DNA of 64,000 nt from Candidatus Saccharimonadales bacterium (GCA_049521895.1 JBEKOJ010000001.1:98717-162716), one strand, 5' to 3'. Positions 13,861-50,793 are shown, counted from the first letter of the stretch. Program-made: numbers and translations. The notes: generated by a model not told the origin, from the letters alone.

Positions 13861-13925
13861 CGGTAATTATATAGCATTGGCAGCGAGGTGGCAGAAATGG
13901 CCAGCTTCACTGCCTGCATCTCTGT

Positions 13926-14282: not shown

Positions 14283-14318
14283 GATTTTCTCCTTGAACTT
14301 ACTTAAATTTGCTCGAAC

Positions 14319-14342
14319 AAAAAAATCCGCCCAAGGCGGATC
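14319..14342 (-). terminator. rho-independent terminator / possible attenuator
   Basis: Minus strand reads GATCCGCC-TTG-GGCGGAT followed by TTTTTTT. It lies 36 nt upstream of the 13926-14282 start and overlaps the stop codon of a 6-codon mini-ORF. Confidence 0.7.
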
Positions 14343-14479
14343 TAAAAGTCATATAATTTCATGAGCCTCCTTTTTGCGGCTTTCACGGGGTGGCAGTCGT
14401 GCCGCAAATTTAAATACAATTCTCAATATATACTCAGCTGGACAAACATGCAAATTTAAATAATGCTTATGCTTTAAAT

Positions 14480-14740: not shown

Positions 14741-14802
14741 GAGCTTTTGCATACTTTTGGCGGATCAAAAGTATGAGACATTTGCTTCTTTGAAAAAGAA
14801 CC

Positions 14803-29693: not shown

Positions 29694-30653
29694 CTAGCTA
29701 TCCCAAGTAAAACCGTTACCAAAGTGGCCGTAGCGGGCGGTTTGTTCGTACTGGGGCCGGCGTAAATCCAGGTATTCAATAATGCCCTTAGGCGTGAGGT
29801 CGTAGCCCTCCACCGGGTAAACTTTGCCGTCTACCCTAGTTATAGCCTCTACCGGTTCAGCAACGCCGATGGAGTAAGCTAGATAGCAATAAACTTCTTG
29901 GGCTTTGTGCTTTTTAAGATAATCCACGGCAATACGCCGGGCCATATAGGCGGCCGAGCGGTCTACTTTGGTGGCGTCTTTGCCAGAAAAAGCACCGCCG
30001 CCCACCGGAATCTGCGGGCCGTAATTGTCGATTACCAATTTGCGGCCGGTCAGGCCGGTGTCAGCATCAAAACCTCCTTGGTCCCAATCCCCGGTGGGGT
30101 TGGTATAGATAATAGTGTTCTTGGCGTGACTCTTGTTCTTTAGCCAATCACGAATGGTGGCCTGCAGCTCGCTACCTTTAGAGTGTTGAAAACTAGCAAC
30201 TACAGCCACGATTTTGCCGTCCTGTAGGGTCACCTGGGTTTTACCGTCGTGCGGCCACTTCTTAAACAGATCCTGATTCAACTGCCTGGCTAACATCACC
30301 TCCAGCGGCAACATTTCGGGTGTTTCAGCAGTAGCATAGCCCACCATAATGCCCTGGTCGCCGGCGCCGCCCGGGTCTACCCCCGCAGCAATCTCTGAAC
30401 TTTGGTGCACAATCTTGATCCGTAGTTTTACATCGCCCGCCAGCCGCTTAACTATTGGCGTAATCTCAATTTTGGCTTTGGCTGTCACTTCACCAACCAC
30501 AAAAACGTGGCCATGACCGCCAACGACCTCAACCGCCACCCGGGCTTTGGGATCAATGGCCAAGTAAGCATCCAATACGGCGTCAGATATCTGGTCGCAC
30601 AGTTTATCAGGATGTTTAGGTGATACGCTCTCGGCTGTTCGGTAACTTGACAT
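29694..30653 (-). CDS. metK: S-adenosylmethionine synthetase (short form, 319 aa)
   Basis: ESVSPKHPDKLCDQISDAVLDAYL, GAGDQGIMVGYAT and KVDRSAAYMARRIA motifs. The start is set at MSSYRTAES because the longer ORF (to 30725) would read through the riboswitch. Confidence 0.9.
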   Translation of the reverse strand: MSSYRTAESVSPKHPDKLCDQISDAVLDAYLAIDPKARVAVEVVGGHGHVFVVGEVTAKAKIEITPIVKRLAGDVKLRIKIVHQSSEIAAGVDPGGAGDQGIMVGYATAETPEMLPLEVMLARQLNQDLFKKWPHDGKTQVTLQDGKIVAVVASFQHSKGSELQATIRDWLKNKSHAKNTIIYTNPTGDWDQGGFDADTGLTGRKLVIDNYGPQIPVGGGAFSGKDATKVDRSAAYMARRIAVDYLKKHKAQEVYCYLAYSIGVAEPVEAITRVDGKVYPVEGYDLTPKGIIEYLDLRRPQYEQTARYGHFGNGFTWDS

Positions 30654-30654
30654 T

Positions 30655-30786
30655 AAAAAAATCCTTTCTGGCAAGAGAAAGGATATGATTTTATATATCT
30701 TTCCCTTACGGGCTAGATTTGGCACCCGCCCTAAGCGGGTTGTCGGCAGATTAACGGGCTAGTTCCCTGTCTGCACTCTTGATATT
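30655..30786 (-). promoter_or_regulatory. SAM-I (S-box) riboswitch with terminator expression platform
   Basis: Minus strand reads ATATCAAGAGTGCAGACAGGGAACTAGCCCGTTAATCTGCCGACAACC...GGGTGCCAAATCTAGCCCGTAAGGGAAAGATATAT. This matches the SAM-I consensus blocks (AUCAAGAG, GGGA-CUGGCCCG, GCAACC, GGUGCCAAUUC, GAAAGAU). It is followed by the hairpin TCCTTTCT-CTTGCC-AGAAAGGA plus TTTTTTT, directly before the metK ATG. Confidence 0.85.
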
Positions 30787-30847
30787 TAATTGTTAACGAG
30801 ATCTATTCTATCACATCATATGCGGCCCAGGCATGCATTGTGAATGG

Positions 30848-36920: not shown

Positions 36921-37322
36921 TTAGCCGTACTGGTTCCATGCTATGTAGGCTAATCGCTTAATCTCGGGGTCTGTGTCCAATAAAAGCGTCATTCCCAGCT
37001 GCTGTGCACCCCCTGGATCCAAGGATCGTAGTTTGTCCAGGTGGTCAAGTACCGCTTTTCTTACCGCCGGGTCTGAGCTTGCCGCCATTGCGCTGTATAG
37101 CTTCGCAGCATCTTCGGGCGGACCCTCAAAAATCCTTGATTCTACATAGTTTACAAGAGTCGCTCTACCGCCTTCACCCTCATGGTCTTGCCTAAACTGA
37201 AGTTCTTGTGAATACCGAGCCGCAATTACGGGCGCCCAATCTGTTCCAGATGACTCAGGTGACAACTCACTCATATTCTTTATGATGCAATAGATTAATG
37301 AAAGGATCAACTCATAAATCAA
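36921..37322 (-). CDS. hypothetical protein, HEAT/ARM-like repeats
   Basis: ORF with a TTG start. Contains short helical repeats (SSDPAVRKAVLDHL..., DTDPEIKRLAYIAW). Confidence 0.45.
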   Translation of the reverse strand: MIYELILSLIYCIIKNMSELSPESSGTDWAPVIAARYSQELQFRQDHEGEGGRATLVNYVESRIFEGPPEDAAKLYSAMAASSDPAVRKAVLDHLDKLRSLDPGGAQQLGMTLLLDTDPEIKRLAYIAWNQYG

Positions 37323-37345
37323 ATTTCAAGGTCTAGACAATTTTA

Positions 37346-37650
37346 TTTCGGGGGATTCGATGAGAGAAATAATTTTGCTACCCGGAGTGGCCGGGTAGCG
37401 CCTGCCACCGGGCGCGTCGCCGGCTCGATGTATCTGTTGTTTAAAACAGGCTCGCTAAAGAACTCCTCGCTGAGCAGTCCCCGACTACTCAACTTCGTCG
37501 AACATGCTTTAGCGCCCAAGGACGCCTCTTTGAAACAACATCTGCTCGGGCCAGCTCCTTATGCCCGGACCTGTTAGCTTCATCTGTTTTGAGCTGATGC
37601 CCGCCGTGTAGCGAACCGCGTTCTACTACTGCGGCCCGGACCCATTTTAT
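37346..37650 (+). repeat. structured element copy A (junction motif b + 78-nt core at 37449-37526)
   Basis: Starts TTTCGGGGGATTCGATGAGAGAAATAATTTTGCTA. Hairpins are CTACCCGG-AGTGG-CCGGGTAG and CTGTT..AACAG, and the core hairpin at 37471-37491 is TGAGCAGTC-CCC-GACTACTCA. Ends GCGGCCCGGACCCATTTTAT. Positions 37371-37526 are nearly identical to 44241-44396. Confidence 0.85.
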
Positions 37651-38356
37651 GTCTAAGTTTTCTTAAACCCGAACCGATACAAAAAAGCACAGCTATGTTA
37701 AAGCTGTGCTTTGAAACAAACGGTAAGTCTTTTTACGATTTACGACCCAGGCTAAAGTGTGCCTATATATGGGATCTGTAAACGCTCGCTCGTAAGCAGA
37801 AAGATGTAGCGTTTCAAGCGGACTCAGATTTTGCTGTCAAAGAGAATACGTCTGTACATTAATAATATCACACTTTTTTATTTTGTCCAGATATCTTCTG
37901 CAACCTTTGGATAGCAAAGGTTGCGCCAAATCCTTCTGGTTTTTGAGGGCCCAAAGCTAGTCCCAGTCGGGGGCGTAGTGTCAGGATTCGGTACGGGTTG
38001 GGATAACCTTAAACAGCAGTGTGTTGTCGGTGATGTAGCTGAATTATAGTTCATAGCCATATTTGATATTTGTATTTCAAAAGGTTTTATAGGCTTATTA
38101 CCCTAATAGGCTCACTATAATACTAATGCTTAAAAAATCAATACCTCTATATGGCGGGCTTTAGCTAGACTAAGCTTGCGTTAAGCTCTACGCCCAGAAG
38201 ATCAGATTGGCAACCAGCTTGACATTTTGGAATTTTAATATTGATAAAAGTTTATCTTTATGCTTTAATGATGTTACTTCGGAGTACTTCGTTTGGTGCG
38301 TTGGCTGTTCCGAAGACTCAGCCTTAATCGTACTCCTACAAAAAGAGAGGGTTTTC

Positions 38357-39271
38357 ATGACCAGAAGGTTATGGATTCTCGCAGGCGCGATCTTCGCGGC
38401 TGTGGTGCTCGGCGTCGGTTTTGCAACTGGCGCGCAGAACTACATCATCTCCAGCCCCAACCAGATCGCTAACAACATCATCCCGGCCTGGAAGCTCACG
38501 CCGGCTGCCCGGCAGTCGCTCCAGGGCGACCGCGGCCCGCAAGGACTGCATGGCCAACGCGGAGCGCAGGGTCCTGCAGGCCAATCAATCATCGGCCCGC
38601 AGGGCCCCGCCGGAGCACCCGGGGCGTCCATCACGGGACCCAAGGGTGACACCGGTAATACGGGTCCGGCGGGAGCCGACTCAACGGTGCCCGGTCCGAA
38701 GGGCGACAAGGGTGACACCGGTAATACGGGTCCGGCGGGAGCCGACTCAACGGTGCCCGGTCCGAAGGGTGACAAGGGTGACACCGGAGCAGCCGGTCCG
38801 CAGGGGCCGCAGGGCGGCAGCCTGTTCGTGTTCGGGCCGTACGCCGGGTCGTCGACGGACTCGTCTGTCTGCGGACCCGACTGGGCAAACGACACCTACA
38901 CCAGGACGTTCGCCGTCGTACCTCAAGCCGACGGCTCGTTCCTGCTCTACGAGTACGCGTCGGGGACCTTCACGACGTTGGCCGGTAACTCGCCCGAGGA
39001 CTGCAACGTGCAGATCCCGGCGGGAATCACCGGAACTCTCTACGGCGACGAAGCGTTCACCATCCCGGCCGGGTCGGACTTCGACCCGACGGCCAGCTTC
39101 AGCTCGCCCGCCGGGCAGCACAACTCGGACGCGGTAAGCGCGTTCATCGCCGCGTTCTTCCCCGGCCAGACGCTGCCGGACAACTACGCCTGGCAGTTCC
39201 ACTACCGGACCGCAAGCAACGGCTCGTGGGACGACACGGACCACGGCGACACGGGGAACATCACCCCGTAA
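38357..39271 (+). CDS. collagen-like (Gly-X-Y) repeat protein with signal/TM anchor and globular C-terminal domain
   Basis: MTRRLWILAGAIFAAVVLGVGFA, then about 100 aa of GXY triplets (GDRGPQGLHGQRGAQGPAG...). GC is high from the start codon onward. RBS GAGAGGG. The longer track ORF (from 38207) begins in AT-rich non-coding-looking sequence. Confidence 0.8.
   Translation: MTRRLWILAGAIFAAVVLGVGFATGAQNYIISSPNQIANNIIPAWKLTPAARQSLQGDRGPQGLHGQRGAQGPAGQSIIGPQGPAGAPGASITGPKGDTGNTGPAGADSTVPGPKGDKGDTGNTGPAGADSTVPGPKGDKGDTGAAGPQGPQGGSLFVFGPYAGSSTDSSVCGPDWANDTYTRTFAVVPQADGSFLLYEYASGTFTTLAGNSPEDCNVQIPAGITGTLYGDEAFTIPAGSDFDPTASFSSPAGQHNSDAVSAFIAAFFPGQTLPDNYAWQFHYRTASNGSWDDTDHGDTGNITP
38645..38776 (+). repeat. 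perfect or near-perfect 66-nt tandem duplication inside the collagen-like gene
   Basis: GGTGACACCGGTAATACGGGTCCGGCGGGAGCCGACTCAACGGTGCCCGGTCCGAAGGG.GACAAG occurs twice, encoding GDTGNTGPAGADSTVPGPKGDK twice. Confidence 0.9.
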
Positions 39272-39375
39272 GCGTCAAGCCGGGTAAAACCGGCACTCGG
39301 CTCGCATACGCGATGCCGCCGCATGGCTCAGTCTGAGTCATGGTCACGGCAGCTTCGCCAAAACGGGCAAAACCT

Positions 39376-39419
39376 GGGCCCGGTGACTGTGAAGTCACCG
39401 GGCCCTCTCTTTATGTTTT
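39376..39419 (+). terminator. GC-rich terminator ending the collagen-like block
   Basis: GGGCCCGGTGAC-TGTGAA-GTCACCGGGCCC (12-bp stem) followed by TCTCTTTATGTTTT. Confidence 0.7.
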
Positions 39420-39451
39420 CGCAATCATCATATGCTTTTTAAATAGCTTTA

Positions 39452-39730
39452 TTTTGGGGTATGATGAAAAATAATTTTGCTAGCCTGAATGGCAGCAGTC
39501 ATCTTCTTTTCCAAAGAAGCAAATAATTTTGTCACCTTTTACCGAAAAGGTGACACCAAACTCTCGGCTGCTTCCTCACCGTGACTTGATTGTTGGTAAA
39601 AATCAAGGCTCGCTAAAGAACTCCTCGCTGAACAGTCCTCGACTACTCAACTTCGTCGAACATGCTTTAGCGCCCAAGGACGCCTGATTTCCACAACATC
39701 AAATCAGGGCTCGAAAGATGCCGAACTTGC
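39452..39730 (+). repeat. structured element copy B (junction motif c + core at 39607-39684)
   Basis: Starts TTTTGGGGTATGATGAAAAATAATTTTGCTA. Its hairpins differ from copy A at equivalent positions (GTCACCTTTT-ACCG-AAAAGGTGAC; CTTGATT..AATCAAG), followed by the same core. The 3' hairpin is CCTGATTT..AAATCAGG. Confidence 0.85.
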
Positions 39731-39748
39731 TAAATCCAGTTACATACA

Positions 39749-40411
39749 TCAATCAGCGCGAAGTTGCTCGTGATACTGACTAACCCACTCAAACTCTTGA
39801 GCCCCAATACGACCCGCCTCTTCTAGCATATTCATAGCAGAGGCAAGGCCATTAATGGCTACCATGTCATACCCCGCATCACTAACTACTTCGGCGCCAC
39901 CTTCTTCTCTGTCAAACATAATTACAAAACCTTGGGTGCTAAGCATCACCTCACCCAATGAAGCGACAGCCTCAAGTTTTGAAGCGGCGTTTGTAATGAC
40001 ATCATCTAGATCAACTACGGTATCTCCTTCAACGAAGTCGCCTTCTATAGGTGTATGTACTCCATATTCTTGGTCCCCAACTCTGCCCCAAAGTATTGAA
40101 TCACCCCTTAACTGTGCGACCATGCCTCCCAACGGGGTCATGGATTGGGGTATACCGTATAAATGTTCATAGGGTTTACCGAGGTCATCGATCCCAATTG
40201 AATAAGCTTCCACAGCTAGGTCGCGGATTCGACGCTGATTATCTAGTGAAAGTCTGCTATTTTTTGCGAAAGAAGTAATCCCGCGCTGATTGTAGTAAAG
40301 AGGAGATCTTCGCCCTGACTTTAGTGTCCATGTAAAGTCACTAAACATTAATGCTCCGCGGTCATATAGACCTATGGTCAATTCTTCAAGTTTCGACTGC
40401 TCTAGGGCCAT
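39749..40411 (-). CDS. type I phosphoribosyltransferase, orotate PRTase-like
   Basis: LYDRGALMFSDFTWTLKSGRRSPLYYNQR (PyrE-like N-terminus) and a PRPP-binding loop TVVDLDDVITNAAS. Confidence 0.7.
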   Translation of the reverse strand: MALEQSKLEELTIGLYDRGALMFSDFTWTLKSGRRSPLYYNQRGITSFAKNSRLSLDNQRRIRDLAVEAYSIGIDDLGKPYEHLYGIPQSMTPLGGMVAQLRGDSILWGRVGDQEYGVHTPIEGDFVEGDTVVDLDDVITNAASKLEAVASLGEVMLSTQGFVIMFDREEGGAEVVSDAGYDMVAINGLASAMNMLEEAGRIGAQEFEWVSQYHEQLRAD

Positions 40412-40526
40412 TACAAAGATTATTCAGCTATTTCTATTTTGACGCAAGCATAAGCAAAATACTTAACGTGCGCGCCCCGTAGGATCTGAAAGATTCCTTC
40501 TGGGGTTAAGTATTCCCTACTCCTCA

Positions 40527-40552
40527 TTTTTGGGGTTCGATGGGAAAGATTT
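40527..40552 (+). repeat. junction motif copy d (TTTTTGGGGTTCGATGGGAAAGATTT)
   Basis: The minus-strand reading gives ..IFPIEPQK-TGA, mimicking the gloA C-terminus IELIESQK-TAA. Confidence 0.75.
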
Positions 40553-40996
40553 GTGACGGGGTTTGCAAGCCAATATTTCGATGGTATAGTTTACTCTATG
40601 ACGGGAGAAATAGGGCCGCCAATATCGCCCGAAGATTTATCACGGGCCTACGTGGAAAATAATAGCCGCCGGATAGACGAAATTATTGCTCAAGAAAGCT
40701 CGGTTTGGCAAGAAGCCATTGACGCTGGCGACGGGTTCTCCCCCTATCACGAGGCTCAGCTGGCGCTGTTGGCGGGTTTAGGCGACCGCGTAAAGACCCT
40801 TGCAAGGCTTTATAGAGTAGAAGAACAGGTAGACAGAGAGTTTTTCTACGATTTGTTGGGCTTCATAAGGGCGACGGATTACGACCCGTCTGACCCTAAT
40901 TCCATACCGCCAACTCGTAAGATTGAGACCGAGCACATAGTTGAAGCCGTGCTTAGCTTACGTGAGCGTAATGCGGGCTTGCAAGAAGCCGCCTAG
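40553..40996 (+). CDS. hypothetical protein
   Basis: 147-aa ORF with a GTG start that exactly fills the space between junction motif copies d and i. No domain recognised. Confidence 0.5.
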   Translation: MTGFASQYFDGIVYSMTGEIGPPISPEDLSRAYVENNSRRIDEIIAQESSVWQEAIDAGDGFSPYHEAQLALLAGLGDRVKTLARLYRVEEQVDREFFYDLLGFIRATDYDPSDPNSIPPTRKIETEHIVEAVLSLRERNAGLQEAA

Positions 40997-41006
40997 CTAC
41001 AGTATG

Positions 41007-41384
41007 TTATTTTTGGGATTCGATAAGTTCGATGCGGTAGCCGTCGGGGTCGCGCACAAAGCAAATCAGGCCGCCGCCGGCACGGACGCTGTATGGCGGT
41101 TTTTCGGGTTCAATGCCCTGTTTGGCCAGCTTAGCCAGAGTATCGGTCAAATTATCAACTCTTAGGGCAATGTGGCCGTAGCCGCTACCGATTTCATATT
41201 TATCAACGCCAAAGTTGTAGGTCAGCTCCAGTTCCGGTTGGGGTTTGTCGGGCACACCGTAAAAATAATTGACCGCCTCGTCGCGGATTGGCAGTTCGCG
41301 GCGCTTTTCCAGCCCTAGCGCCGTATAAAACGCCTCGGACTTCTTAGGATCGGTAATCCGGTAACACGTATGGACTAGCTGCAT
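41007..41384 (-). CDS. gloA: lactoylglutathione lyase (glyoxalase I, VOC family)
   Basis: ELTYNFGVDKYEIGSGYGHIALRVDN and FVRDPDGYRIELIE closely follow the GloA pattern. TATAAT is upstream at about 41393. The last codons (41008-41027) are junction motif copy i. Confidence 0.9.
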   Translation of the reverse strand: MQLVHTCYRITDPKKSEAFYTALGLEKRRELPIRDEAVNYFYGVPDKPQPELELTYNFGVDKYEIGSGYGHIALRVDNLTDTLAKLAKQGIEPEKPPYSVRAGGGLICFVRDPDGYRIELIESQK

Positions 41385-41419
41385 AATCTAATTATAGCTT
41401 GGTCCAGTCTTAGATTTTA

Positions 41420-41446
41420 GGTAGCCGTTGTATATTCGAATTGGAA
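41420..41446 (+). repeat. 27-nt direct repeat, left copy (GGTAGCCGTTGTATATTCGAATTGGAA)
   Basis: 25 of 27 nt are identical to 43426-43452. The two copies bracket the GC-rich three-gene block. Confidence 0.85.
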
Positions 41447-41758
41447 TACTATCTTGGCTGAGCTATCTCGGTGGAAGAGCCTATCTAGAGATGGTAATCT
41501 GTTAGCTTGCTCTACTGGGTAGGAGTGGAACTTGGCCCTCGCTGCTCAACGAGGCTAGAACTCTAATTGCAATTAACGATTATTGGGGTTAATCTCGCTT
41601 TCGTCCTTTTGGACTCGTCAGTATGAACAAACATTCATATAGCGATTCAGGAAAGGGTAGATTCGGAGCAAAAATGCTCGAAACGAAATCTACCCGACCT
41701 GCTGGCGGGGACAGTAATGTCCCCGCCATCCTGCGCAGGTCTGCTCTGGTGCCGCCTT

Positions 41759-42394
41759 CTACCTCGTGAACTTGAACGACGGAGGTCCGGTGATCTGGAT
41801 CTGGCCCGTGGCGTCGTTCCACGTTGCCGCCGCGAAGGTGGAAGCCACGTAGCCCTCCCAGTAGAAGGGGGTGACCGCACCGCCCTTGCCGATGCAGAGG
41901 ACGTACGTTCCCGTGCCGCCGCCCTGGTAGATCCCGTTCGGATCCATGTTCTTGATCGTGATGTTGCCGCCGCCGTTGTTCAGCGGTTGGGAGTTGTCGC
42001 GCTCCGGCTGATCCGGATTGCTGAGCTGGTCTTCGACCTGGATCGGCGCGCCGATCGACGGGCACTGGTACATCGGCGGGCTGGCCTTGGTGCAGCCCAT
42101 CGGCGGGCAGAAGAACGACGTCGACTGGGCACCCACGACCTCGGCGTTCTCGATCTCGATCAGGTTCTGCCGGATCTGGCTCTTGCCGGAGAAGGCCGGC
42201 AGCGGCTGAACCTGCAGGTAGTGGTTCGAGATGACGTCCTGCTGCCGCTGTTCGGTGTCGATCGGGTTGCTGCCCGACGCCAGCGCTGCGCCGGTCGAGA
42301 CCAGCAGAGCGAAGACGATGGCGAACGCAACGCGTCCACGGGTGATCTTGATCGTCAGCGGTTCCGTCCGGCGGTATCTCGGGAACTTCTTCAT
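41759..42394 (-). CDS. secreted Cys-containing hypothetical protein (GC-rich block)
   Basis: Signal/TM segment (VAFAIVFALLVSTGAALA). RBS GAGGAG. A GC-rich hairpin GGCGGGGA-CAGTAATG-TCCCCGCC (41704-41727) lies downstream of the stop. Confidence 0.65.
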   Translation of the reverse strand: MKKFPRYRRTEPLTIKITRGRVAFAIVFALLVSTGAALASGSNPIDTEQRQQDVISNHYLQVQPLPAFSGKSQIRQNLIEIENAEVVGAQSTSFFCPPMGCTKASPPMYQCPSIGAPIQVEDQLSNPDQPERDNSQPLNNGGGNITIKNMDPNGIYQGGGTGTYVLCIGKGGAVTPFYWEGYVASTFAAATWNDATGQIQITGPPSFKFTR

Positions 42395-42407
42395 GTCGTC
42401 AGTCTCC

Positions 42408-42872
42408 TCAGTGGGGGTTGGGTTCCGTCGGGTACGTCTCGTAAGGAGACGCTGGATTCGCTACGTCGCCGTTGCAGTTGGCCTTGATGAAGGCCGCCGA
42501 CGGCAGCGGGCCCTGTGAGGGGTCTACCGTCGAGGCGTCGCTGCAAAGGGTCATGAGCGTATTGAGCCGCTGGTTCCCCAGGGCCTGCTTCTCCTCTTCC
42601 GTCTGGCCGACCATCTGAGCGCCGATCTGGCTGATCTCCTGCATGTCGGCGGTCACCGCCTGGCGCTGGGCCTGCTGGTAGCCGTAGTTGTGCACGTAGT
42701 TGTGCGCCTGGATCTGGTTGATCGTTCCTTGCCGCTTGGCATTCTGGACCTGGAACCAGCCGCCGACGGCCCAGCCGACGACGAGAATCACGACGACCAG
42801 GGCTGCGGCAATCGCTGCGAGGGCCATTCCTGACAGCCCAGCGATGACTCCCTCGCGGGTGTCGTCATTCAT
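42408..42872 (-). CDS. single-TM hypothetical protein (GC-rich block)
   Basis: TM helix LSGMALAAIAAALVVVILVVGWAVGGW. The start overlaps the upstream stop (ATGAATGA coupling). Confidence 0.65.
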   Translation of the reverse strand: MNDDTREGVIAGLSGMALAAIAAALVVVILVVGWAVGGWFQVQNAKRQGTINQIQAHNYVHNYGYQQAQRQAVTADMQEISQIGAQMVGQTEEEKQALGNQRLNTLMTLCSDASTVDPSQGPLPSAAFIKANCNGDVANPASPYETYPTEPNPH

Positions 42873-43107
42873 GAAGTCTCCTCCTTAGCCGTTTCGTTTC
42901 GGCTTCTCGGTCTAGTGAGATCTTACGAACCGCGTACTCATTTGCGGTTATCTTGTCCATCATCACGGCCTCTTCTAGCGCCTTCTGTCGCGTCTCGATC
43001 GACGGGTGTTTCTGCTTGTATCCCTGTCGCAGCAACACCCCGACCACACCTAGAAGGAGGATCGCGATTAGAACGAGTACTCCAACTACTAAGAGTGGGT
43101 TAATCAT
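42865..43107 (-). CDS. small TM protein with SHOCT-like C-terminal helix (GC-rich block)
   Basis: TM helix LLVVGVLVLIAILLLGVVGVLL, then KITANEYAVRKISL resembling the SHOCT motif. RBS GGAGAG. Confidence 0.6.
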   Translation of the reverse strand: MINPLLVVGVLVLIAILLLGVVGVLLRQGYKQKHPSIETRQKALEEAVMMDKITANEYAVRKISLDREAETKRLRRRLHE

Positions 43108-43153
43108 TTCTTGCTACTGCTCTCCTTTCGGATATGGAGCGGGGTGTCAATTT

Positions 43154-43208
43154 CCCTGTTCAGGGTTATCACGCTCATTATTATCAAAGCGCAAAAACCC
43201 TGAACAGG
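43154..43208. promoter_or_regulatory. pair of palindromic 12-mers upstream of the GC-rich operon (candidate operator)
   Basis: CCCTGTTCAGGG (43154-43165) and CCCTGAACAGGT (43198-43209) are about 44 nt apart, 47-100 nt upstream of the first gene start. Confidence 0.4.
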
Positions 43209-43348
43209 TTAACTAGAGCATGTTGTTAAAGTACCTTCGATGTGTTACCACCTCAAAGAAACTGGATTATAATACCACAAATATAATAAACGGTCAATAC
43301 TCGATACTCGTTGCTTAACGAATTAGAATATCAAAAGCACCGGGTAAG

Positions 43349-43452
43349 ACTGGAACCTAAATAACAGAGGTAGTATAAAAATGAGGATTGACTAACTTGC
43401 CAATCCGGATCTGTTATTCAAACTTGGTAGCCGTTGTTCATTCGAATTGGAA
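43349..43452 (+). repeat. duplicated gene-end + hairpin + tRNA-3'-like segment (copy 1), including right copy of the 27-nt repeat
   Basis: ACTGGAACCTAAATAACAG... repeats the last codons, stop and downstream hairpin of the 43513-44100 gene (about 75% identity to 44085-44165 by eye). It ends in CTTGGTAGCCGTTGTTCATTCGAATTGGAA. Confidence 0.8.
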
Positions 43453-43512
43453 CGACCTTAGACCAGAGTTAGCGAGATGGAAGTCTTTGCTAGCAAGTGC
43501 TAACCTAGTCAT

Positions 43513-44100
43513 ATGACAGAACAAACAACAAAAAGCAGCGAATTACTAAATAGTCCGAGATTTGAACTGACTGAACTTGATGGTGATGACGGTATCCCCA
43601 CTCATCTGCACGGCTTTAGGCTGCTATATCAAGCTGATGAAGGCTACGCCTATTCTAAATGTTTTGAAGGCTATCATTTGGGAGTAAACGATGATGATAC
43701 AGAAGAAGTTGACCCTGATTTTTTTAGCATTGAATTAGTAGAGAACAAAACAGGTGAGCCAGGAATTGCTTCTAAACTCATAAGAGCTTCCATAAAAGAG
43801 GCTATAAAAAGAGGTTTTAGCCAAGGCAGAGCTAGGATTTTCAATCCAAAAATCTTGACGATACTCGAGAAAATGCAGAGCGAGGGCCTTGTGTCAGATA
43901 TTGACTGCTACCTTGGAGATGAGAGTACACCCATCCATTTTCCATCAAGCGAATTAGCTGCAAAATATACACCTGTTACTCCAGAAGCAGCTAAACAGCA
44001 TTTAGAGATGTATCCTCATACAGACGACAGGTTGAATGAGGATGCTATAGCTGAAACGGTTTTTAAAATCAATAACCAAGAAGGACTGGAACCTAAATAA
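43513..44100 (+). CDS. hypothetical protein (possibly GNAT-like fold)
   Basis: 195-aa low-GC ORF. There is only weak resemblance of FFSIELVENKTGEPGIASKLIRASIKEAIKRGF to an acetyltransferase motif A region. Confidence 0.55.
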   Translation: MTEQTTKSSELLNSPRFELTELDGDDGIPTHLHGFRLLYQADEGYAYSKCFEGYHLGVNDDDTEEVDPDFFSIELVENKTGEPGIASKLIRASIKEAIKRGFSQGRARIFNPKILTILEKMQSEGLVSDIDCYLGDESTPIHFPSSELAAKYTPVTPEAAKQHLEMYPHTDDRLNEDAIAETVFKINNQEGLEPK

Positions 44101-44183
44101 CAGGGGTAGGAATAAAAAAAGATTAGCCCGTTTGCTAATCTCTATCTGTTACTTAAGCTTGGTAGACCAAACGAGACTCGAAC
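44085..44183 (+). repeat. gene-end + hairpin + tRNA-3'-end-like fragment (copy 2)
   Basis: Hairpin GATTAGC-CCGTTT-GCTAATC, with a T7 run on the minus strand. Positions 44158-44183, read on the minus strand, give GTTCGAGTCTCGTTTGGTCTACCAAG. That is T-loop, T-stem 3' half, 7-nt acceptor, A and CCA, with no 5' half. Confidence 0.75.
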
Positions 44184-44190
44184 TTTAGAG

Positions 44191-44500
44191 TATTTTTGGG
44201 ATTCGATCCTTCGGCCAGCTCAGGACAGGTGAGAAGAATAATTTTTGCTACCCGGAGTGGCCGGGTAGCGCCTGCCACCGGGCGCGTCGCCGGCTCGATG
44301 TATCTGTTGTTTAAAACAGGCTCGCTAAAGAACTCCTCGCTGAGCAGTCCCCGGCTACTCAACTTCGTTAAACATGCTTTAGCGCCCAAGGACGCCTGAT
44401 TTTTACAACGTCAAATCAGGGCTCGAAAGATGCCGAACTTAAGAAGCCGATACCTGTCCAGCACTTATCGCGATAAGTGCTGCGGCCCGGACCCATTTTA
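44191..44500 (+). repeat. structured element copy C (junction motif e + core at 44319-44396)
   Basis: TATTTTTGGGATTCGAT (44191-44207) is 17/17 identical to gloA 41008-41024. A 32-nt insertion follows relative to copy A, then sequence nearly identical to copy A through the core. The 3' hairpin is CAGCACTTATCG/CGATAAGTGCTG, and it ends GCGGCCCGGACCCATTTTA. Confidence 0.85.
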
Positions 44501-44520
44501 TCTTTGGGATTCAACAAGAG
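44496..44520 (+). repeat. junction motif copy f (TTTTATCTTTGGGATTCAACAAGAG)
   Basis: The minus-strand reading gives VESQR-TAA, again mimicking the gloA end. Confidence 0.65.
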
Positions 44521-44525
44521 AAATT

Positions 44526-44723
44526 TTGGTGCAGCAAGTAGGAAAATCTTTACACCTCATCAGGGATGAGATAGCCCGTTGGAGAACTATGCTAGAAATC
44601 CCTTATCGGGAGTATCTAAGTTCTATAATGCAATTAAGTGACACAAGGGATTTATACATGTTAGTAGATAGAATAGATGAGGCGCAGCTTAAAGACACTT
44701 TCGGGCTAGAGCTTACTGACTAG
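44526..44723 (+). CDS. possible small hypothetical protein (start uncertain)
   Basis: This is the 3' part of track ORF 44430-44723. The 5' part overlaps the non-coding repeat, so only TTG/GTG starts at 44526/44529 are plausible. There is no clear RBS. Confidence 0.3.
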   Translation: MVQQVGKSLHLIRDEIARWRTMLEIPYREYLSSIMQLSDTRDLYMLVDRIDEAQLKDTFGLELTD

Positions 44724-46517
44724 GTTAGTGATCAGACTTTTAATACTTGCCTGAGTTGTCGATCTCAAATCCGTCAGCTTTAATTTACTGTCTTTTACTT
44801 TTTTATAAAACTTTATAGCAGAAATTAGCTTTGGCAGATTATTGTCGAGCAGGTACTTAGAATTAGTTGTCGTGTATCTTACGCTACTATTCCCAATAAC
44901 ATGCTTCTTAAAATCGCCCTTAGTAAAAATATCTTCGATTCCATCAACCCCTACCCCAATTAACTTGTTACTAGAGAGTGTTGGGTCACCACCGAACACA
45001 TCCCGTTTGATTTCTCTCCTGACACTCTTACCAGCTGGATCGTCATCAGTAAGCACTACAAAATCTAGATCCCATCCCAAGAATAAATTAACTAAGAGCG
45101 GGATATTTGTGACTCCTGTAGCAGGCAGAAAGTTAGTTTCATGCGTTTCGCCGATTAGTTTTTTAAAGGCTTTAAGATAATAGAACGCACTTGGCTCTTC
45201 AAGAATAATATTATTTTTATTCTTTATGGCCTTTTGGTGGTCAAGACTTACGCCAATGAGAGTATATACAGGAAATAGGGTGTCTCTGTTGGCTGCACCA
45301 AGTTTATGTATGTCAAAGACATTTGTTTCACTATTCTCATCATCCACATCTGATCTCTGAACTGCCAGTAAGCGGTAGAGTGATTCAGGCTCAATTAAGT
45401 AAGGTGAGTGAGTTGTATAAAAGATCTGAAGATTCTTCCTAATGTCTTCGAATACTTTTAATACATCTTTCTGCGCCTTAGCATGTAATGAAGCACCAGG
45501 TTCATCGATGAGCAGTATATCGTTATTATTTTCGACTTTTGCCATTGCGTTTAACTGTAAGAAAAAGGACAAAAACCACTGCACCCCCTTACTGCGCTGA
45601 TCAGGGCGCAAAAGCTCTTGAGAATCCTTAACCCAAAACGAAAGGTAGGGCTTACCCGCTAACTCAGGATCTTTGTCATCATGATTTTTAAGCTCTACCT
45701 CTATTTCTATTTTGCTGCTCTTACCTATATATTGTCTCCAGAACTCCTGAAATTGATGCGTAAGAGCTAGGTTAGCCCTTCTAACTTTTTTACCCAAAGT
45801 CCGTGCGTGAGTTTGTGCTAGATCTGATGAATTTAGATCAACAATTCTAAGAAAATTGCGTGCACCTTTTATGCCAGGAGCTTGTGACGAGGTATTGTCT
45901 ATCTCGCTCAAGTCAATAGTCGCAGGCAGTAGACTACCCAAATCTTCGAAAAATTCAATGCTGGGAGTATGAGAATAGATCTGTTCTACTAAATCGGTAT
46001 AGTCCAAAGCCTTTGGCAGTGCTTTTGTTTCCGTAGCCGCAGGTTCTGCTTCGTTTTCTGCTGGTGCTTCTTCCGCTCCAGGTTCTTCCGCGGGGGGTTC
46101 AGGCGCAGGCTGGCTAGTAGAAACAGACTCAATAATCTCCCTCAGATCATCGTTCTCAATATCTAGGGTCGATGTTTCTTTGTCCAAGCCAGTCCAGGTT
46201 CGCTTAAGTATAATAATGTTCCCATTCTTATGGAAATAGTCAGTTACGGGTTTAGCCCCATCGTATTCTATAAGTATTTCTGCAAGTTCTTCCTCACTAA
46301 ATGCATATGTGCAGGTCACTTCAGGGTATAGGTCAGCATCCTTTAAGTAATCTTCCTTGAGCTCCCCTTGATCAAAGCAGTACAATGCCTCTAGCACTGC
46401 GGTCTTTCCAGCTTCATTCTGACCGATTAGAGCTGTAATGTTGTCAGAAGATGTTTGGCACAGTCCAGTGTCGATAATTGATTTAAAGTCCTTGATTCTA
46501 AAAGCTGTTAACTTCAC
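44706..46517 (-). CDS. OLD-family nuclease (ABC-type ATPase + Toprim)
   Basis: Walker A GQNEAGKT, Walker B ILLIDEPGASLH, Toprim Glu (IILEEPSAFYY) and DxD (VVLTDDDPAGKS). Low GC, GTG start. Confidence 0.8.
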   Translation of the reverse strand: MKLTAFRIKDFKSIIDTGLCQTSSDNITALIGQNEAGKTAVLEALYCFDQGELKEDYLKDADLYPEVTCTYAFSEEELAEILIEYDGAKPVTDYFHKNGNIIILKRTWTGLDKETSTLDIENDDLREIIESVSTSQPAPEPPAEEPGAEEAPAENEAEPAATETKALPKALDYTDLVEQIYSHTPSIEFFEDLGSLLPATIDLSEIDNTSSQAPGIKGARNFLRIVDLNSSDLAQTHARTLGKKVRRANLALTHQFQEFWRQYIGKSSKIEIEVELKNHDDKDPELAGKPYLSFWVKDSQELLRPDQRSKGVQWFLSFFLQLNAMAKVENNNDILLIDEPGASLHAKAQKDVLKVFEDIRKNLQIFYTTHSPYLIEPESLYRLLAVQRSDVDDENSETNVFDIHKLGAANRDTLFPVYTLIGVSLDHQKAIKNKNNIILEEPSAFYYLKAFKKLIGETHETNFLPATGVTNIPLLVNLFLGWDLDFVVLTDDDPAGKSVRREIKRDVFGGDPTLSSNKLIGVGVDGIEDIFTKGDFKKHVIGNSSVRYTTTNSKYLLDNNLPKLISAIKFYKKVKDSKLKLTDLRSTTQASIKSLITNLVSKL

Positions 46518-46654
46518 CTGACCCTCTTTTGCGTAATTATGCTAATTATCCTCTATGCCTTCTAGTAAGTAAATACTACATAATGCTTATGCTTATATCG
46601 CAAGAATTAATAGATGTCGAACGATAAGTATTGGACACTTACGGTATAGGTCTG

Positions 46655-46680
46655 TTTTTGGGGCTCGACGAGAGAGATTT
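46655..46680 (+). repeat. junction motif copy g (TTTTTGGGGCTCGACGAGAGAGATTT)
   Basis: Immediately abuts the stop codon of the SRA-HNH gene. The minus-strand reading contains VEPQK. Confidence 0.75.
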
Positions 46681-47508
46681 CTAGTTATTGAAGAATTTTT
46701 CGTTGTGGTATTTGAGAAATTCTAAATTAATATGATGCTTTGGAGATATCACTATCCTACCCTTCAAAGGCCCGACAAGCTGTAGTCTAGGATCGATTGA
46801 GAAGGCATAATTATCGAACATAACATGGTGATTGGGGCATAGACAAAGTATATTCTCAATTATATCTGGCCCGTCGTGTGGCCTGCCTAATGGCTTTATG
46901 TGCGCTGCTTCAGCATATCTCTGTCCAAGTGGAAGTTCGATAGCCATACCACAAACCTGGCATCTATAGTCATATATCTCCTTCAGCTTTCTAGATTGTT
47001 TTGTGTCACGCACAATTCTTAACGATTGATATTCCCGGCGCTCTGAAGGGAGCACTTCACCTTTGGGCCGACTGGTTTGTTGATAGCTGCCTTCAAGCCT
47101 AAAGCGAATAACGATATGCCCGCTCTTACCAACCTCGCGCCAATATTCAGTTACATAAAAATCCCCAGCATACGTATATCCTCTTTTTGGAGAAAATTTT
47201 GACTCATGATTAGAGTCCCTTATTACATGTATGGGAGCATTTCTTTCCTTACTTATAGCTAAGGCTAGATTACCTTTTGTCAGTTGCTGGTCTGATATTT
47301 GCTTACCACTTCTTGGATCGCGCCCTCCCTCACCGGTGTAAATGACTATGTTGCCATAATCCTCATCATCTTCATAACCACCAGACAAGACTATTGAATA
47401 AGCTCCCGTCGCCGGGTTTCCGGCTATACCAGCCATAAGCGGTCCATGAAGACCTGCTGCTGCAACTTCTCGCCTATTTTGAAAGTTTGTGCCCGGTTTG
47501 ACCATCAT
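46681..47508 (-). CDS. SRA(YDG)-HNH endonuclease, type IV (modification-dependent) restriction enzyme-like
   Basis: SRA pattern AGLHGPLMAGI...GAYSIVLSGGYEDDEDYGNIVIYTGEGG. The C-terminal HNH is CQVCG...AAHIKP...NILCLCPNHHVMFD. Confidence 0.85.
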   Translation of the reverse strand: MMVKPGTNFQNRREVAAAGLHGPLMAGIAGNPATGAYSIVLSGGYEDDEDYGNIVIYTGEGGRDPRSGKQISDQQLTKGNLALAISKERNAPIHVIRDSNHESKFSPKRGYTYAGDFYVTEYWREVGKSGHIVIRFRLEGSYQQTSRPKGEVLPSERREYQSLRIVRDTKQSRKLKEIYDYRCQVCGMAIELPLGQRYAEAAHIKPLGRPHDGPDIIENILCLCPNHHVMFDNYAFSIDPRLQLVGPLKGRIVISPKHHINLEFLKYHNEKFFNN

Positions 47509-47530
47509 TACTTAAGCCTGTGGTTTTCTG

Positions 47531-49387
47531 TCATGAACGAAGACCTTCTCTAAAATAGCCTTCAGTCTCTTTGTCCATAAAGTAAACGTAGACACCTTTA
47601 TGCGCTCGGCTCAGGAGGACTCTATAGACATTCTTGAGGTGGTTAGCAAATTGAGCGTTACCGCGTTTGGCGGCCGAGTCATATGAAAATTCCGGCTGGG
47701 CTATCCAGCTGCCAGCATTTTTTTGATAAACCAAATCCTTGCCAAAAATTACGCCTATGTAGTCAAATTCAAAGCCTTGGGCAGTGTAGACTGTACCGAT
47801 CTGCTCCATACCGCTATCATCTGTTGCCCATTTCCAAAATTCATTTTTCTTTTCCCACGGCATCTCAAAACTGCCGATCTTGACGTCTTTGACTAACGAT
47901 CCATCAGAATTTGGCTCGCTCCACGGCCAACAAAAGCCAGCAGCAATTCTGGCTGAATTTTTCTTCTCAGAATTCTTCTGGCGAATTTTTAGTAGCATGT
48001 CGTGAGGATCATCGAAAATTCTGAACTCCATTTTTGGATCGAAATGTGCTAGATCTGATGGTCTAATATCAAGTAAATTATCAAGCCACTGTAGATAGGC
48101 GTCAGATCCGGAGCAGCGGAACTGAGTCGTAAGCTCAAATTCTCCAATATCTTCTGGTCCAATACCAATCCTTTCAGCAGCATTTTTAATCAACTTAACA
48201 CTACCGATCTCGTTAGGGCGCACTACCTGGTATTCATCAATAAAGAAAATTGAAAGTTTGGCCACGCTTAATAACTCATCGATTTGTGGCATATTGGAGC
48301 GCTGAGTTTTTGAGGTATACATATTGTTGCTGGTTTCACGTATTCGGTGAGCTTCATCACAGACTAGAACATCAATTGAATTGGACTCAGCGTTCGTAAA
48401 GCTATTGAAGAACTTAAAAAGGTTTTTGGCTCGTACCCCCACGATTTTTCGAAGAGTATTGGTAAAAGCAGATGAACCGGTGGCATGAAAAACTACCTGC
48501 CCCCGCCGCATCAATTCACCCATAACTTCCAGGGCAATCACCGATTTACCGGTTCCCGGTCCACCCTTTACGATAATGACCGATTTGGTTGATTGCACGC
48601 TGAGTTTCTTAGCCCGACCGATAATAGAGTTATATGCTGTAATCTGATCATCAATCAGAGTAAAAATTTGTTGTTTGTGAATCATATCGCCAGTGTGATC
48701 CAGCAGCTTCTTCGACGGCCGGACAGGACTATTAGTGAACCGGTTAAGGACCTCGACACCCTGGCCGGCCGATATACGTTTTTGCAGATATTCTCCGAGG
48801 GCTTTTACATCCTCTTTGCCAAATACGGGGAATTTTTGTAGAGCTACATCGAATGATCTGTCAAGTAATGTTTGCTCACCGGACTCTTTTGAATAGTTGT
48901 GACAGTAGACGCACGAATCTAGTTTCATCGGCTCGCTTTGATCTGTAAAAACCTCGACAAAATCAATTATGCCGTAGTGATAACCTTCGGCTTGTAGAGA
49001 CGGATGGACTTGTTCTTTAACGAATCTGCCGTACTCGACGACGACGTTCCCCTCGCTCTCGCACTTATGAACCTTATCGTTAGACCATTGCTTGAGTTCA
49101 ATTAACACAGCATAGTCACTCGCTCCGTCGTTTTTGCCAAATATCAGTGTGTCAATGCGACGCGAAGTAAATGGTAGTTCGTATTCAATAATGATGCTTG
49201 ATTCAGGCACTTCGGCGTATCGGATAGCGTTATTTAGGTAGTTAAGCGATTCGCGCCATGCACGAGTTTCAGAAGGTCCCGGCGCGCGGCGATAGTATTC
49301 GCTAAAATTATTCTCGAGGATGTCCGCAATTGTATTCGTTGTGACCAGTTCATCAAATTGCCTAATTGTCCCTTCGAAAAGCCTCAT
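47531..49387 (-). CDS. DUF2075-family SF1 helicase-like ATPase with N-terminal PD-(D/E)xK-like module
   Basis: Walker A KGGPGTGKSV, Walker B VLVCDEAHRI, FFIDEYQVVRP, YTAQGFEFDYIGVIFG and VLLSRAHKGVYVY. The N-terminal RRIDTLIFG...VLIELKQW fits D...ExK. Confidence 0.8.
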   Translation of the reverse strand: MRLFEGTIRQFDELVTTNTIADILENNFSEYYRRAPGPSETRAWRESLNYLNNAIRYAEVPESSIIIEYELPFTSRRIDTLIFGKNDGASDYAVLIELKQWSNDKVHKCESEGNVVVEYGRFVKEQVHPSLQAEGYHYGIIDFVEVFTDQSEPMKLDSCVYCHNYSKESGEQTLLDRSFDVALQKFPVFGKEDVKALGEYLQKRISAGQGVEVLNRFTNSPVRPSKKLLDHTGDMIHKQQIFTLIDDQITAYNSIIGRAKKLSVQSTKSVIIVKGGPGTGKSVIALEVMGELMRRGQVVFHATGSSAFTNTLRKIVGVRAKNLFKFFNSFTNAESNSIDVLVCDEAHRIRETSNNMYTSKTQRSNMPQIDELLSVAKLSIFFIDEYQVVRPNEIGSVKLIKNAAERIGIGPEDIGEFELTTQFRCSGSDAYLQWLDNLLDIRPSDLAHFDPKMEFRIFDDPHDMLLKIRQKNSEKKNSARIAAGFCWPWSEPNSDGSLVKDVKIGSFEMPWEKKNEFWKWATDDSGMEQIGTVYTAQGFEFDYIGVIFGKDLVYQKNAGSWIAQPEFSYDSAAKRGNAQFANHLKNVYRVLLSRAHKGVYVYFMDKETEGYFREGLRS

Positions 49388-49731
49388 AGTTCGGTATATT
49401 TCTTGTGGCTGTTTTTGGCTTTCGTAACTGGGTATTTTTTCTCGTTTTTCTTCATTTTGCGCTCAAATTCCTTCGGTAAATTTATATCTAGATCATGCGC
49501 TATCAAAAGTACCCAGTACAAAACATCCACTAGTTCATCGCTTACTTCTTCACGATTCTTTTTTAGATGTTTTTTAATTTCTTTGGCTGACTTCCATTGA
49601 AAGTGCTCCAAAAATTCGGCGGCTTCAAGCGCCAAAGAAATGGCTAAGTCTTTAGGATTATGAAACTGTTCCCAGTTTCGCTTGTCCCGATAGTTAATAA
49701 TCCTTTTTTGCAAATCCTCAAGATCAGACAT
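49384..49731 (-). CDS. MazG-like nucleotide pyrophosphohydrolase (dCTPase/DR2231-type small MazG)
   Basis: RDKRNWEQFHNPKDLAISLALEAAEFLEHFQWK and EEVSDELVDVLYWVLLIAHDL (EExxE/D metal motifs). The stop overlaps the DUF2075 start by 4 nt (ATGA). ATG at 49731 has a GGAG RBS. Confidence 0.8.
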   Translation of the reverse strand: MSDLEDLQKRIINYRDKRNWEQFHNPKDLAISLALEAAEFLEHFQWKSAKEIKKHLKKNREEVSDELVDVLYWVLLIAHDLDINLPKEFERKMKKNEKKYPVTKAKNSHKKYTEL

Positions 49732-49751
49732 CAAAGCTCCAATTCCAGCTA

Positions 49752-49757
49752 ATTATA
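49752..49757 (-). promoter_or_regulatory. putative -10 box (GGGTATAAT) of the MazG-DUF2075-SRA/HNH operon
   Basis: TATAAT lies about 20 nt upstream of the ATG. The same GGTATAAT-type box precedes several neighbouring small genes (about 50210, 50735, 52290 on the minus strand). Confidence 0.35.
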
Positions 49758-49824
49758 CCCCTGTTTGGGGTGCTGGCGCTAGCCAGTTTGTAGTTAAGCG
49801 GGTCCAAGCCGCCGCGAGCCTGGT

Positions 49825-50178
49825 TTAGTAAACGGGGAGCTGTTCCATCAAGTTAGCTTCATCTTGGAGTTCGCTGACTAGCTGGCGTTTGCGGCCGGCC
49901 CTAATTTTGTATTTTTGTCGGCGTAGAAACTGTACGACCGTACCGATGGCAAGCACAGTGAATAAAGCGGTGGCTTCTTCTTTTTCATACGCCCACTGTT
50001 CGGGCACATAGTTCAGAGCTATTGTCGCCCCGCCTGACAGCAGAGCCATTGCTCCAAAAGACTGGGCGCTGTCTTTAATATCCGCCGCGGTATCTTCTAG
50101 ATCTTCTGCCTGCATATCCAGACCGTCTATGATAATTCCCAACTCTTCTTGCTCGGTTGTTTTTAGATCTTCAATCAT
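49825..50178 (-). CDS. hypothetical membrane protein (acidic N-terminus, 2 TM)
   Basis: ORF with its own TATAAT-like box upstream. No domain recognised. Confidence 0.5.
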   Translation of the reverse strand: MIEDLKTTEQEELGIIIDGLDMQAEDLEDTAADIKDSAQSFGAMALLSGGATIALNYVPEQWAYEKEEATALFTVLAIGTVVQFLRRQKYKIRAGRKRQLVSELQDEANLMEQLPVY

Positions 50179-50235
50179 GTTTTAGTAAATCTTACAAGTT
50201 AACCAAAAAATTATACCCCCGTTCCGGCAAAATCT

Positions 50236-50771: not shown

Positions 50772-50793
50772 AATACTTAACAAGTTAAGTATT
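50772..50793. terminator. perfect palindrome AATACTTAAC-AA-GTTAAGTATT (family member)
   Basis: 10-bp arms lying between two tandem minus-strand genes. On the minus strand it is followed by TTTCAAAT. Confidence 0.5.

Follow-up and report, generated by a model that had tools for sequence, protein, structure and literature searches.

A covarying rod-shaped fold in multi-copy, non-coding intergenic elements of Saccharimonadales

Four copies of the element in the window

The DNA analysed here is a stretch of 64,000 nucleotides (nt) from a Candidatus Saccharimonadales bacterium (GCA_049521895.1, JBEKOJ010000001.1:98717-162716), and the whole of this stretch is referred to as the window. An earlier note on this DNA had described an element of about 300 nt with a 78-nt core, present in three copies (A, B and C) in one island and in a further copy, Z. 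All coordinates and sequences quoted for the four copies were found in place. Copies A, B and C lie on the + strand, with cores at 37449-37526, 39607-39684 and 44319-44396, respectively, and copy Z lies on the - strand (14591-14727). A repeat finder recovered all three of these and, in inverted orientation, a match at 14582-14697 corresponding to Z. The common core is identical at 76/78 positions between A and B, 75/78 between A and C and 73/78 between B and C. The near-identity of A and C was borne out as well, with 166 of 178 positions identical without gaps and an unbroken common block of 111 nt. Z has the same loops as A, B and C, and its inner hairpin is fully compensated. The repeat exceeds chance, since two occurrences of the 18-nt 3' end GGCCCGGACCCATTTTAT compare with an expectation of 0.06 and matches to the covariance model described below reach 49-150 bits (E-values 1e-10 to 1e-39).

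Copy A is preceded by the junction motif TCGGGGGATTCGATGAGAGAAAT (37348-37370, +), just upstream of which stands ATTTTAT, repeated at the 3' end of the copy. Then follow AATAATTTTG, the 5' module hairpin GCTACCCGG-AGTGG-CCGGGTAGC (37377-37399, +) and the rod-shaped part (37420-37555, +; 147.9 bits in the covariance model), which has the core as its apex. The 3' modules of A (37554-37650, +) comprise GCTCCTTATGCCCGG, found also in Z and in the metagenome locus L009, a variable hairpin at 37608-37626 and a terminal CTGCGGCCCGGACCCATTTTAT that recurs in C. In copy B, the junction motif TTTTGGGGTATGATGAAAAATAA (39452-39474, +) is followed by a small AU hairpin, CTTCTTTTCCAAAGAAG, and by the hairpin TGTCACCTTTT-ACCG-AAAAGGTGACA (39530-39555, +), which occupies the position of the A/C hairpin; the rod (39576-39713, +) scores 143.6 bits and the 3' end GATGCCGAACT lies at about 39722. 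Copy C consists of a junction motif (44194-44216, +), a 23-nt insertion followed by AATAATTTTTGCTA, the same 5' hairpin as in A (44247-44269, +), a rod of 133 bits (44290-44425, +) and a 3' module (44446-44524, +) with its own hairpin (44460-44481), an A-type terminal segment (44480-44501) and a second junction motif (44502-44524). The - strand copy Z has a 5' module (14728-14802) with a small AU hairpin, TTCTTTTTCAAAGAA, 2 nt after the cobO stop codon and a hairpin with a CCGCC loop at 14750-14775. Its rod scores 149.9 bits and carries the inner hairpin GTGAATATGCT-CCC-AGCATATTCAC, and its 3' modules (14323-14590) include GCTCCTTATGCCCAG at 14549-14563 and the hairpin CTATAGGG..CCCTATAG and end, on the same strand, with a canonical intrinsic terminator (14323-14343).

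The motif TTTTGGGRTTCGAYGAGAGAAAT, then AATAATTTTG and a hairpin, thus precedes A, B and C. The earlier note had let each copy start with the junction motif followed by AATAATTTTGCTA; the two are indeed adjacent in A and B, whereas in C they are split by the 23-nt insertion.

Homologues, fold and covariation

Protein searches assigned the organism to Saccharimonadales. A search of other genomes, as proposed in the note, uncovered homologues. In a pattern scan, the GTDB species representatives contributed one Saccharibacteria metagenome-assembled genome (MAG; locus L001) and the JGI metagenomes nine true and five false loci. A covariance model built from seven distinct rods recognized 16 copies, spread over the window, loci of Saccharimonadales metagenomes and the one MAG: four in the window, three in L012, two each in L001 and L005, and one each in L009, L010, L011, L014 and L018. 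No copy was found by the model in 87 kb from other relatives (L036-L042). L012 is closely related to the window strain, L014 corresponds to the A locus at 94% identity, and the copy in L018, a divergent one in inverted position after cobO, reaches 49 bits. The loci L005-L014 stem from peat and rhizosphere samples.

Each copy forms a single long imperfect hairpin, the rod, which measures about 140 to 250 nt and carries the core at the apex. At the apex lie three near-constant unpaired segments, AACUCCUY, (C)UUCGUYRRAYAUG and a CCAAG bulge (AACTCCTY, (C)TTCGTYRRAYATG and CCAAG in DNA letters, also written ACUCCUC, UCGUCGAACAU and CCAAG); the bulge is unchanged in 16 of 16 copies. The apical hairpin of about 11 bp differs in sequence between almost all lineages, in most of which it pairs without a mismatch, as exemplified by the arms GTGAATATGCT/AGCATATTCAC, CAAAGTTGCC/GGCAACTTTG, AGAAGAACTGCC/GGCAGTTCTTCT and ATTAAACAGCT/AGCTGTTTAAT. 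Likewise, the outer helix GCUAAAG/CUUUAGC is replaced by GCUUGAAG/CUUCAAGC in L009 and L010, by GGUCUUGGC/GCCAAUGCC in the second copy of L001 (L001-2) and by GCCUUCA/UGAAGG in L018 (in DNA letters, GCTAAAG/CTTTAGC gives way to GCTTGAAG/CTTCAAGC, GGTCTTGGC/GCCAATGCC or GCCTTCA/TGAAGG).

Covariation was computed on a model-based alignment of the 16 copies, with column shuffles and slid partners as controls. Standard pairs occupied 91% of cells; column shuffling lowered this share to 73% and sliding the partners to 30-44%. Two-sided changes were present in 29 of 37 pairs, and the covariation score of 0.483 stood against 0.169 for shuffles and a maximum of 0.112 for slid partners; the observed values were reached by none of 500 shuffles. 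The fold z-scores of the rods ranged from -3 to -6 with RNA and DNA parameters alike. The element is a structured nucleic acid under selection for pairing, and the earlier claim of a structured single strand in which helices are conserved rather than sequence or frame is strongly upheld. The architecture had to be revised: CTGTT..AACAG and CTTGATT..AATCAAG, previously seen as local hairpins, are an alternative local pairing, and only the long-range pairing of the 5' and 3' arms is kept and covaries in the homologues. The 5' hairpin pair, CTACCCGG..CCGGGTAG in A and C and GTCACCTTTT..AAAAGGTGAC in B, is real. Swapping of whole hairpins holds for this 5' hairpin, for the apical hairpin and for one 3' hairpin, all set around one rod and not in a series of hairpins.

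Three architectures were distinguished among the copies; short conserved linkers connect the rod with the hairpin modules, which are optional on both the 5' and the 3' side. In Z, B, L010 and L018, the rod comes after the linker CAAAGCTCTCGGGC, which is itself preceded by a small AU hairpin and, next to the linker, a hairpin whose loop is CCGCC-like. A and C have the order junction motif, AATAATTTTG, GC-rich hairpin, rod and 3' modules (exchangeable hairpin and terminal CTGCGGCCCGGACCCATTTTAT). The rods of L011, L005 and L001 are about 245 nt long, and extend from CCGCTCGCCCC to GGGGYTCGCYCAAC, with the palindrome ATACTTAACnnGTTAAGTAT and a T-run often coming next. A perfect palindrome, TACTTAACAAGTTAAGTA, was also seen in the window at 50774-50791 between two - strand open reading frames (ORFs); it may be a separate small repeat or terminator module, because it follows the 3' ends of rods in five loci (L011, L005, L001, L010 and L012).

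Strong covariation combined with invariant unpaired loops is the usual signature of a functional RNA. The copies might accordingly be paralogous non-coding RNA (ncRNA) genes or cis-acting RNAs of 3' untranslated regions, the rod being transcribed either at the end of the upstream mRNA or under a promoter of its own. Unpaired C/U-rich segments (ACUCCUC, GCUCCUUAUGCCC and the CCC and CCGCC loops) would then serve as binding sites, either for proteins or in the manner of an anti-Shine-Dalgarno sequence, through which translation or stability is regulated; another possibility is that the apex is a catalytic core. Covariation demonstrates a constraint on pairing and not RNA as such, because templated (quasi-palindrome) DNA mutation in inverted repeats also makes matched changes. 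Moreover, G-U or U-G pairs accounted for just 10 of 586 paired-column cells on the original strand and most apical stems are perfectly Watson-Crick paired, which is unusual for selection at the RNA level and more typical of DNA hairpins.

The same 586 cells contained 32 A-C or C-A combinations, a ratio of about 13 to 8.5 when wobble changes were counted as independent events. A choice of strand from wobble pairs was tried and dropped: the raw counts favour the complement, and the ratio of independent events is just that of about 13 to 8.5. The minimum free energy was lower for the complementary strand in 8 of 8 rods, and z-scores were alike on both strands with either parameter set. The wobble statistics lean weakly to the complementary strand, and the abutment on stop codons and the downstream terminators (see below) favour the strand as read in the earlier note. 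Its + strand applies to the location of A, B and C; free energy, wobble and z-scores do not establish a functional + polarity.

The inability to assign the element to a family stood up to the proposed Rfam check, run on the regions of all four copies. With Rfam 15, the rods had no match in the whole window at the gathering score, nor at E<=10 in the regions 37000-45000 and 14100-15000, the 6S models included. Weak overlaps were confined to the surroundings of the rods, namely RalA across the start of B (16 bits, gathering score 170) and, on the opposite strand of the Z 3' modules, Thermales-rpoB (19.5 bits) and ssNA-helicase (17.1 bits). ARAGORN reported no tRNA or tmRNA at the rods; the tRNA-Leu and tRNA-Gln of the window lie elsewhere.

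These searches bear on the idea that the element is a decayed or fast-evolving coding fragment, or a fragment of a tmRNA-like RNA gene left by island integration. Open frames of 50-90 codons do span the core in several copies, the junction motif is loosely T-loop-like (TCGAATCCC on the complementary strand) and smpB is present in the window. Yet a six-frame comparison of 10 copies revealed no shared frame, every frame being closed in some copy as the note had held. The spacer across the apical hairpin measures 24, 26 or 27 nt and so does not keep to multiples of three, and the six-frame translations, concatenated and searched against 5.8 billion proteins, had no match. ARAGORN and Rfam were negative even at E<=10, and the compensatory changes are specific to helices. 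We regard this explanation as essentially refuted. A tmRNA or tRNA remnant, brought up by GGGATTCGA and the nearby smpB, was rejected on the same negative results, and the junction motif shows no T-arm pairing. A small toxin peptide was rejected too, as the short 'MFDE...' ORF on the complementary strand has no ribosome-binding site and its AUG is lost in two copies.

Insertion sites, strain breakpoint and the island

The copies are intergenic, occur in both orientations and have no uniform orientation relative to neighbouring genes. These neighbours are unrelated and comprise groEL, rpsJ-rplC, ABC-transporter permease genes of the ABC-2 and FtsX types, cobO and a glyoxalase gene. The notion of an island-specific element was therefore not borne out, with copies in other genomes after groEL, cobO and permease genes and in the rpsJ-rplC spacer. 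In L005, two inverted copies lie 4 kb apart, one directly after groEL and the other directly after an FtsX-type permease gene; the single copy of L011 follows an ABC-2 permease gene. The two convergent rods of L001 widen the rpsJ-rplC spacer of this groundwater Saccharibacteria MAG to 790 nt (L001:2831-3621), and a second ATGTGA, the string that contains the rpsJ stop codon, directly precedes the first of them. A composite transposon bounded by convergent rods (L001, L005, L012, L018) was considered and set aside, as the arrangement is equally explained by rods placed after convergent genes.

In four independent cases, the copy starts 0-2 nt past the stop codon that closes a gene in the same orientation (cobO, groEL, ABC-2 permease, FtsX permease); Z is then followed by its terminator and several others by an AT-rich palindrome and a T-run. 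This arrangement speaks for the ncRNA explanation, as do terminator-like hairpins behind the A and B rods on the opposite strand and a hammerhead-like ribozyme candidate in the same island. Its weak points are the inconsistent orientation relative to genes (L001-2, L018 and A are antisense or divergent), the lack of any convincing conserved promoter in either orientation, presence or absence that differs among close relatives, and the existence of mosaic copies. Taking both sides together, we judge ncRNA genes or 3'-end RNAs possible, though on the unlikely side.

The junction between cobO and the SNase gene is an insertion hot spot. In three lineages (L022/23, L039/40 and L041/42; the comparison includes L022:10570-10594, L040 and L041) it is empty and measures 23-95 nt. 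In the window (13860-14803) it holds Z and a 118-amino-acid ORF over about 950 nt, in L018 two rod-type elements and small ORFs, in L036 a HAD hydrolase gene and in L020 several genes. By its unrelated contexts and this empty junction, the element is a dispersed, mobile or exchangeable repeat. For copy A no empty orthologous site was found, all close strains carrying A. A phage or plasmid origin was rejected: blastn against a phage collection gave zero matches, and of the pattern scans of viral contigs two were empty, one of these with a pattern one base off, and another returned seven matches, none of them confirmed by the model.

Copy C had been taken for an independent variant but is a recombinant mosaic. 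It is A-type at 44243-44353, continues with a B-type 3' arm (44371-44440) and its own 3' hairpin, and closes with an A-type end (44480-44501). Because the 5' arm is A-type and the 3' arm B-type, its outer rod pairs less well. The mosaic is direct evidence of recombination between copies via the shared core. The comparison with L012 places a strain breakpoint at the same copy: the two strains are 99.5% identical over 38647-44446 and unrelated just 3' of the C rod, L012 continuing with different defence-type genes and ending in its third, inverted rod. Rods mark sites of genome reshuffling. The strain-variable defence region (window 44446-50200, L012:1-4760) encodes an OLD-like AAA ATPase, an SRA-HNH protein, a Schlafen-type helicase and MazG in the window; L012 has other ORFs, including an HNH-like protein (by sequence motifs only) and a MazG-like protein resembling that of the window.

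The 23-nt junction motif, TTTTGGGATTCGATGAGAGAAAT, occurs at 34455, 37348, 39452, 40528, 41011, 44194, 44502 and 46656, always on the + strand, and thus keeps one orientation at gene boundaries of the island irrespective of gene orientation. It was also found at L009:506(+), L010:6410(-), L012:4022(-) and L012:2389(-), with or without an adjacent rod, and may itself act as a site of recombination or as a boundary.

Rods and junction motif together raise the prospect of folded single-stranded DNA (ssDNA) sites for site-specific cassette exchange, comparable to integron attC sites or to hairpins read by HUH endonucleases, with an apex read by a recombinase encoded elsewhere and with rods and junction motif as cassette boundaries in a variable defence island. 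The rods of A, B and C and the eight co-oriented junction motifs indeed divide 34.4-46.7 kb into unrelated genes on either strand, the motif is found again in L009, in L010 and in that part of L012 which is specific to the strain, the breakpoint between strains falls just 3' of a rod and the cobO-SNase hot spot has alternative contents. Near-pure Watson-Crick stems that fold well on both strands with DNA parameters would suit such sites too, and GYYCAAC ends four of five complete L011-type copies. This was the sole trace of attC boxes, as the complementary 5' box, and hence a RYYYAAC/GTTRRRY pair, is absent. Furthermore, the conserved sequence is apical and not basal like attC crossover boxes, single copies after groEL and inside the rpsJ-rplC spacer are not cassette arrays, and junction motifs without rods occur as well as rods without junction motifs. 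No intI tyrosine recombinase stands beside the rods among the 40 ORFs of the 64-kb window. We consider ssDNA exchange sites of this kind quite improbable.

Other features of the window were noted in passing. The hammerhead type III candidate (41593-41647, -) scored 31.9 bits against a gathering score of 48.5 (E=8e-4 in an 8-kb search); its core is intact (CUGACGAG, stem II GUCC/GGAC, CGAAA), the cleavage triplet is CUA and it lies in the variable island about 110 nt downstream of the ORF 41759-42394. A collagen-like (Gly-X-Y) gene at 38207-39271 (+) contains 66-nt tandem repeats (38641-38805), the number of which is variable, as its product has 282, 304 or 326 amino acids in the near-identical strains L024-L026. 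A SAM-I riboswitch (30692-30788, -; 48.7 bits, above gathering) is located directly upstream of the S-adenosylmethionine synthetase gene (29694-30725).

Interpretation and known systems

The reading we put first, with confidence and doubt in about equal measure, is that A, B, C and Z are lineage-specific, multi-copy, modular non-coding intergenic repeats of Saccharimonadales, similar in kind to REP, ERIC and BOX elements and recognized as a folded single strand. The observations above show the fold with its covariation, the non-coding status, the patchy distribution in multiple copies, the empty cobO-SNase junction, the mosaic C and the breakpoint between strains beside a rod; the protein partner, the mode of spreading, the active form (RNA or ssDNA) and the active strand are inferred. 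The invariant apex would be the putative docking site of a trans-acting factor, probably a protein, and the helices would need merely to exist and could drift by compensatory or templated changes. Copies would be gained and lost at intergenic sites, typically right after a stop codon, where the transcript from upstream may gain hairpins at its 3' end from the rods. The identical core would let copies recombine, so that arms and the flanking gene cassettes of variable and defence regions could be shuffled.

Several points weigh against repeats of this kind. Neither terminal inverted repeats nor a consistent target-site duplication could be seen to define the ends, which differ between the architectural types; the sole direct repeat is the 7-nt ATTTTAT around A, and no parent insertion sequence was found in the window or the loci. 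Unlike in transposase-driven miniature inverted-repeat transposable elements, the conserved part is the apex and not the termini, and a Pfam scan of the 40 window ORFs detected no integrase, recombinase or transposase. At the only empty site, Z is not inserted by itself but together with a gene. The sample is small, with about 10 independent copies. Finally, the loops are near-invariant among genomes with CobO proteins that differ by 13-18%, which is no better explained by a selfish repeat than by a cellular function.

The intergenic-repeat reading and its rivals overlap. An improbable but more far-reaching variant is that the rod is a new class of large structured nucleic acid with a functional core at its apex and forms, with the junction motif, a structure-directed recombination system without known counterpart, in which this core, as a ribozyme or as a site guiding a recombinase or nuclease, would drive or target the exchange of cassettes that include defence genes. 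The rod is a well-supported new structural motif, usable for searching genomes of the candidate phyla radiation (CPR). It marks where these genomes gain and lose genes, the defence island included, and is a candidate protein-nucleic-acid recognition system. Since Saccharibacteria and CPR genomes are very small and contain little non-coding DNA, a multi-copy element of 140-300 nt with a near-invariant core is unlikely to be neutral.

Among known systems, ERIC/IRU elements are imperfect palindromes that fold into a rod with a conserved central core; they are intergenic, lie in either orientation and show size variants and patchy copy numbers. Elements of the ERIC and REP types are transcribed as well and influence the fate of mRNAs. 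The rods described here share this plan, including the frequent location in transcription units, size variants by internal indels and patchy copy number between relatives. The resemblance is one of architecture alone, no sequence relationship being expected between Saccharimonadales and enterobacterial or vibrio hosts. In contrast to the 127-bp ERIC consensus, the rods measure 140-250 nt and carry extra 5' and 3' hairpin modules, and their centre is an asymmetric, non-palindromic loop and bulge beside a hypervariable apical stem.

REP, BIME and REPIN elements are likewise hairpin repeats just downstream of stop codons with a structure kept across copies, a presumed recognition of the single-stranded hairpin by a trans-acting Y1/HUH enzyme and a possible role as 3'-end stabilizer or terminator. 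REPs, however, are 20-40 nt long with a GTAG foot and a RAYT partner, whereas the rods show no evident GTAG-foot unit and have their conserved determinant at the apex, and no RAYT-like gene was recognized. BOX elements of S. pneumoniae, and similarly Correia/NEMIS, RUP and bcr1, have exchangeable sub-units, a stable predicted structure and multiple intergenic copies, and affect the expression of neighbouring genes. Their module sequences are different, no Correia- or RUP-like terminal inverted repeats or target duplications were found at the rods, and the degree of invariance in the unpaired apex of the rods is unusual.

With attC sites, the rods share structure over sequence, a folded single strand, variable terminal structures and a position at cassette boundaries. 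The pattern of conservation is reversed, attC sites conserving the base (R''/R' boxes) and varying at the apex; in addition, the rods are two to four times longer, occur outside arrays and have no IntI gene nearby. 6S RNA and the Frpo/sso hairpins resemble them in being rods of 140-250 nt with a conserved internal bubble between helices, but the present element has no Rfam 6S match at E<=10, varies in presence and absence as a multi-copy element and contains no recognizable -35/-10 mimic in the rod. Structured intergenic repeats are already known, and this family is previously undescribed in Saccharibacteria, the literature searches made having turned up no account of such an element in Saccharibacteria or CPR bacteria. 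What sets it apart from its nearest analogues is the unusual combination, in a streamlined genome, of an asymmetric loop conserved at the apex, a hypervariable and mostly mismatch-free apical stem and exchangeable modules.

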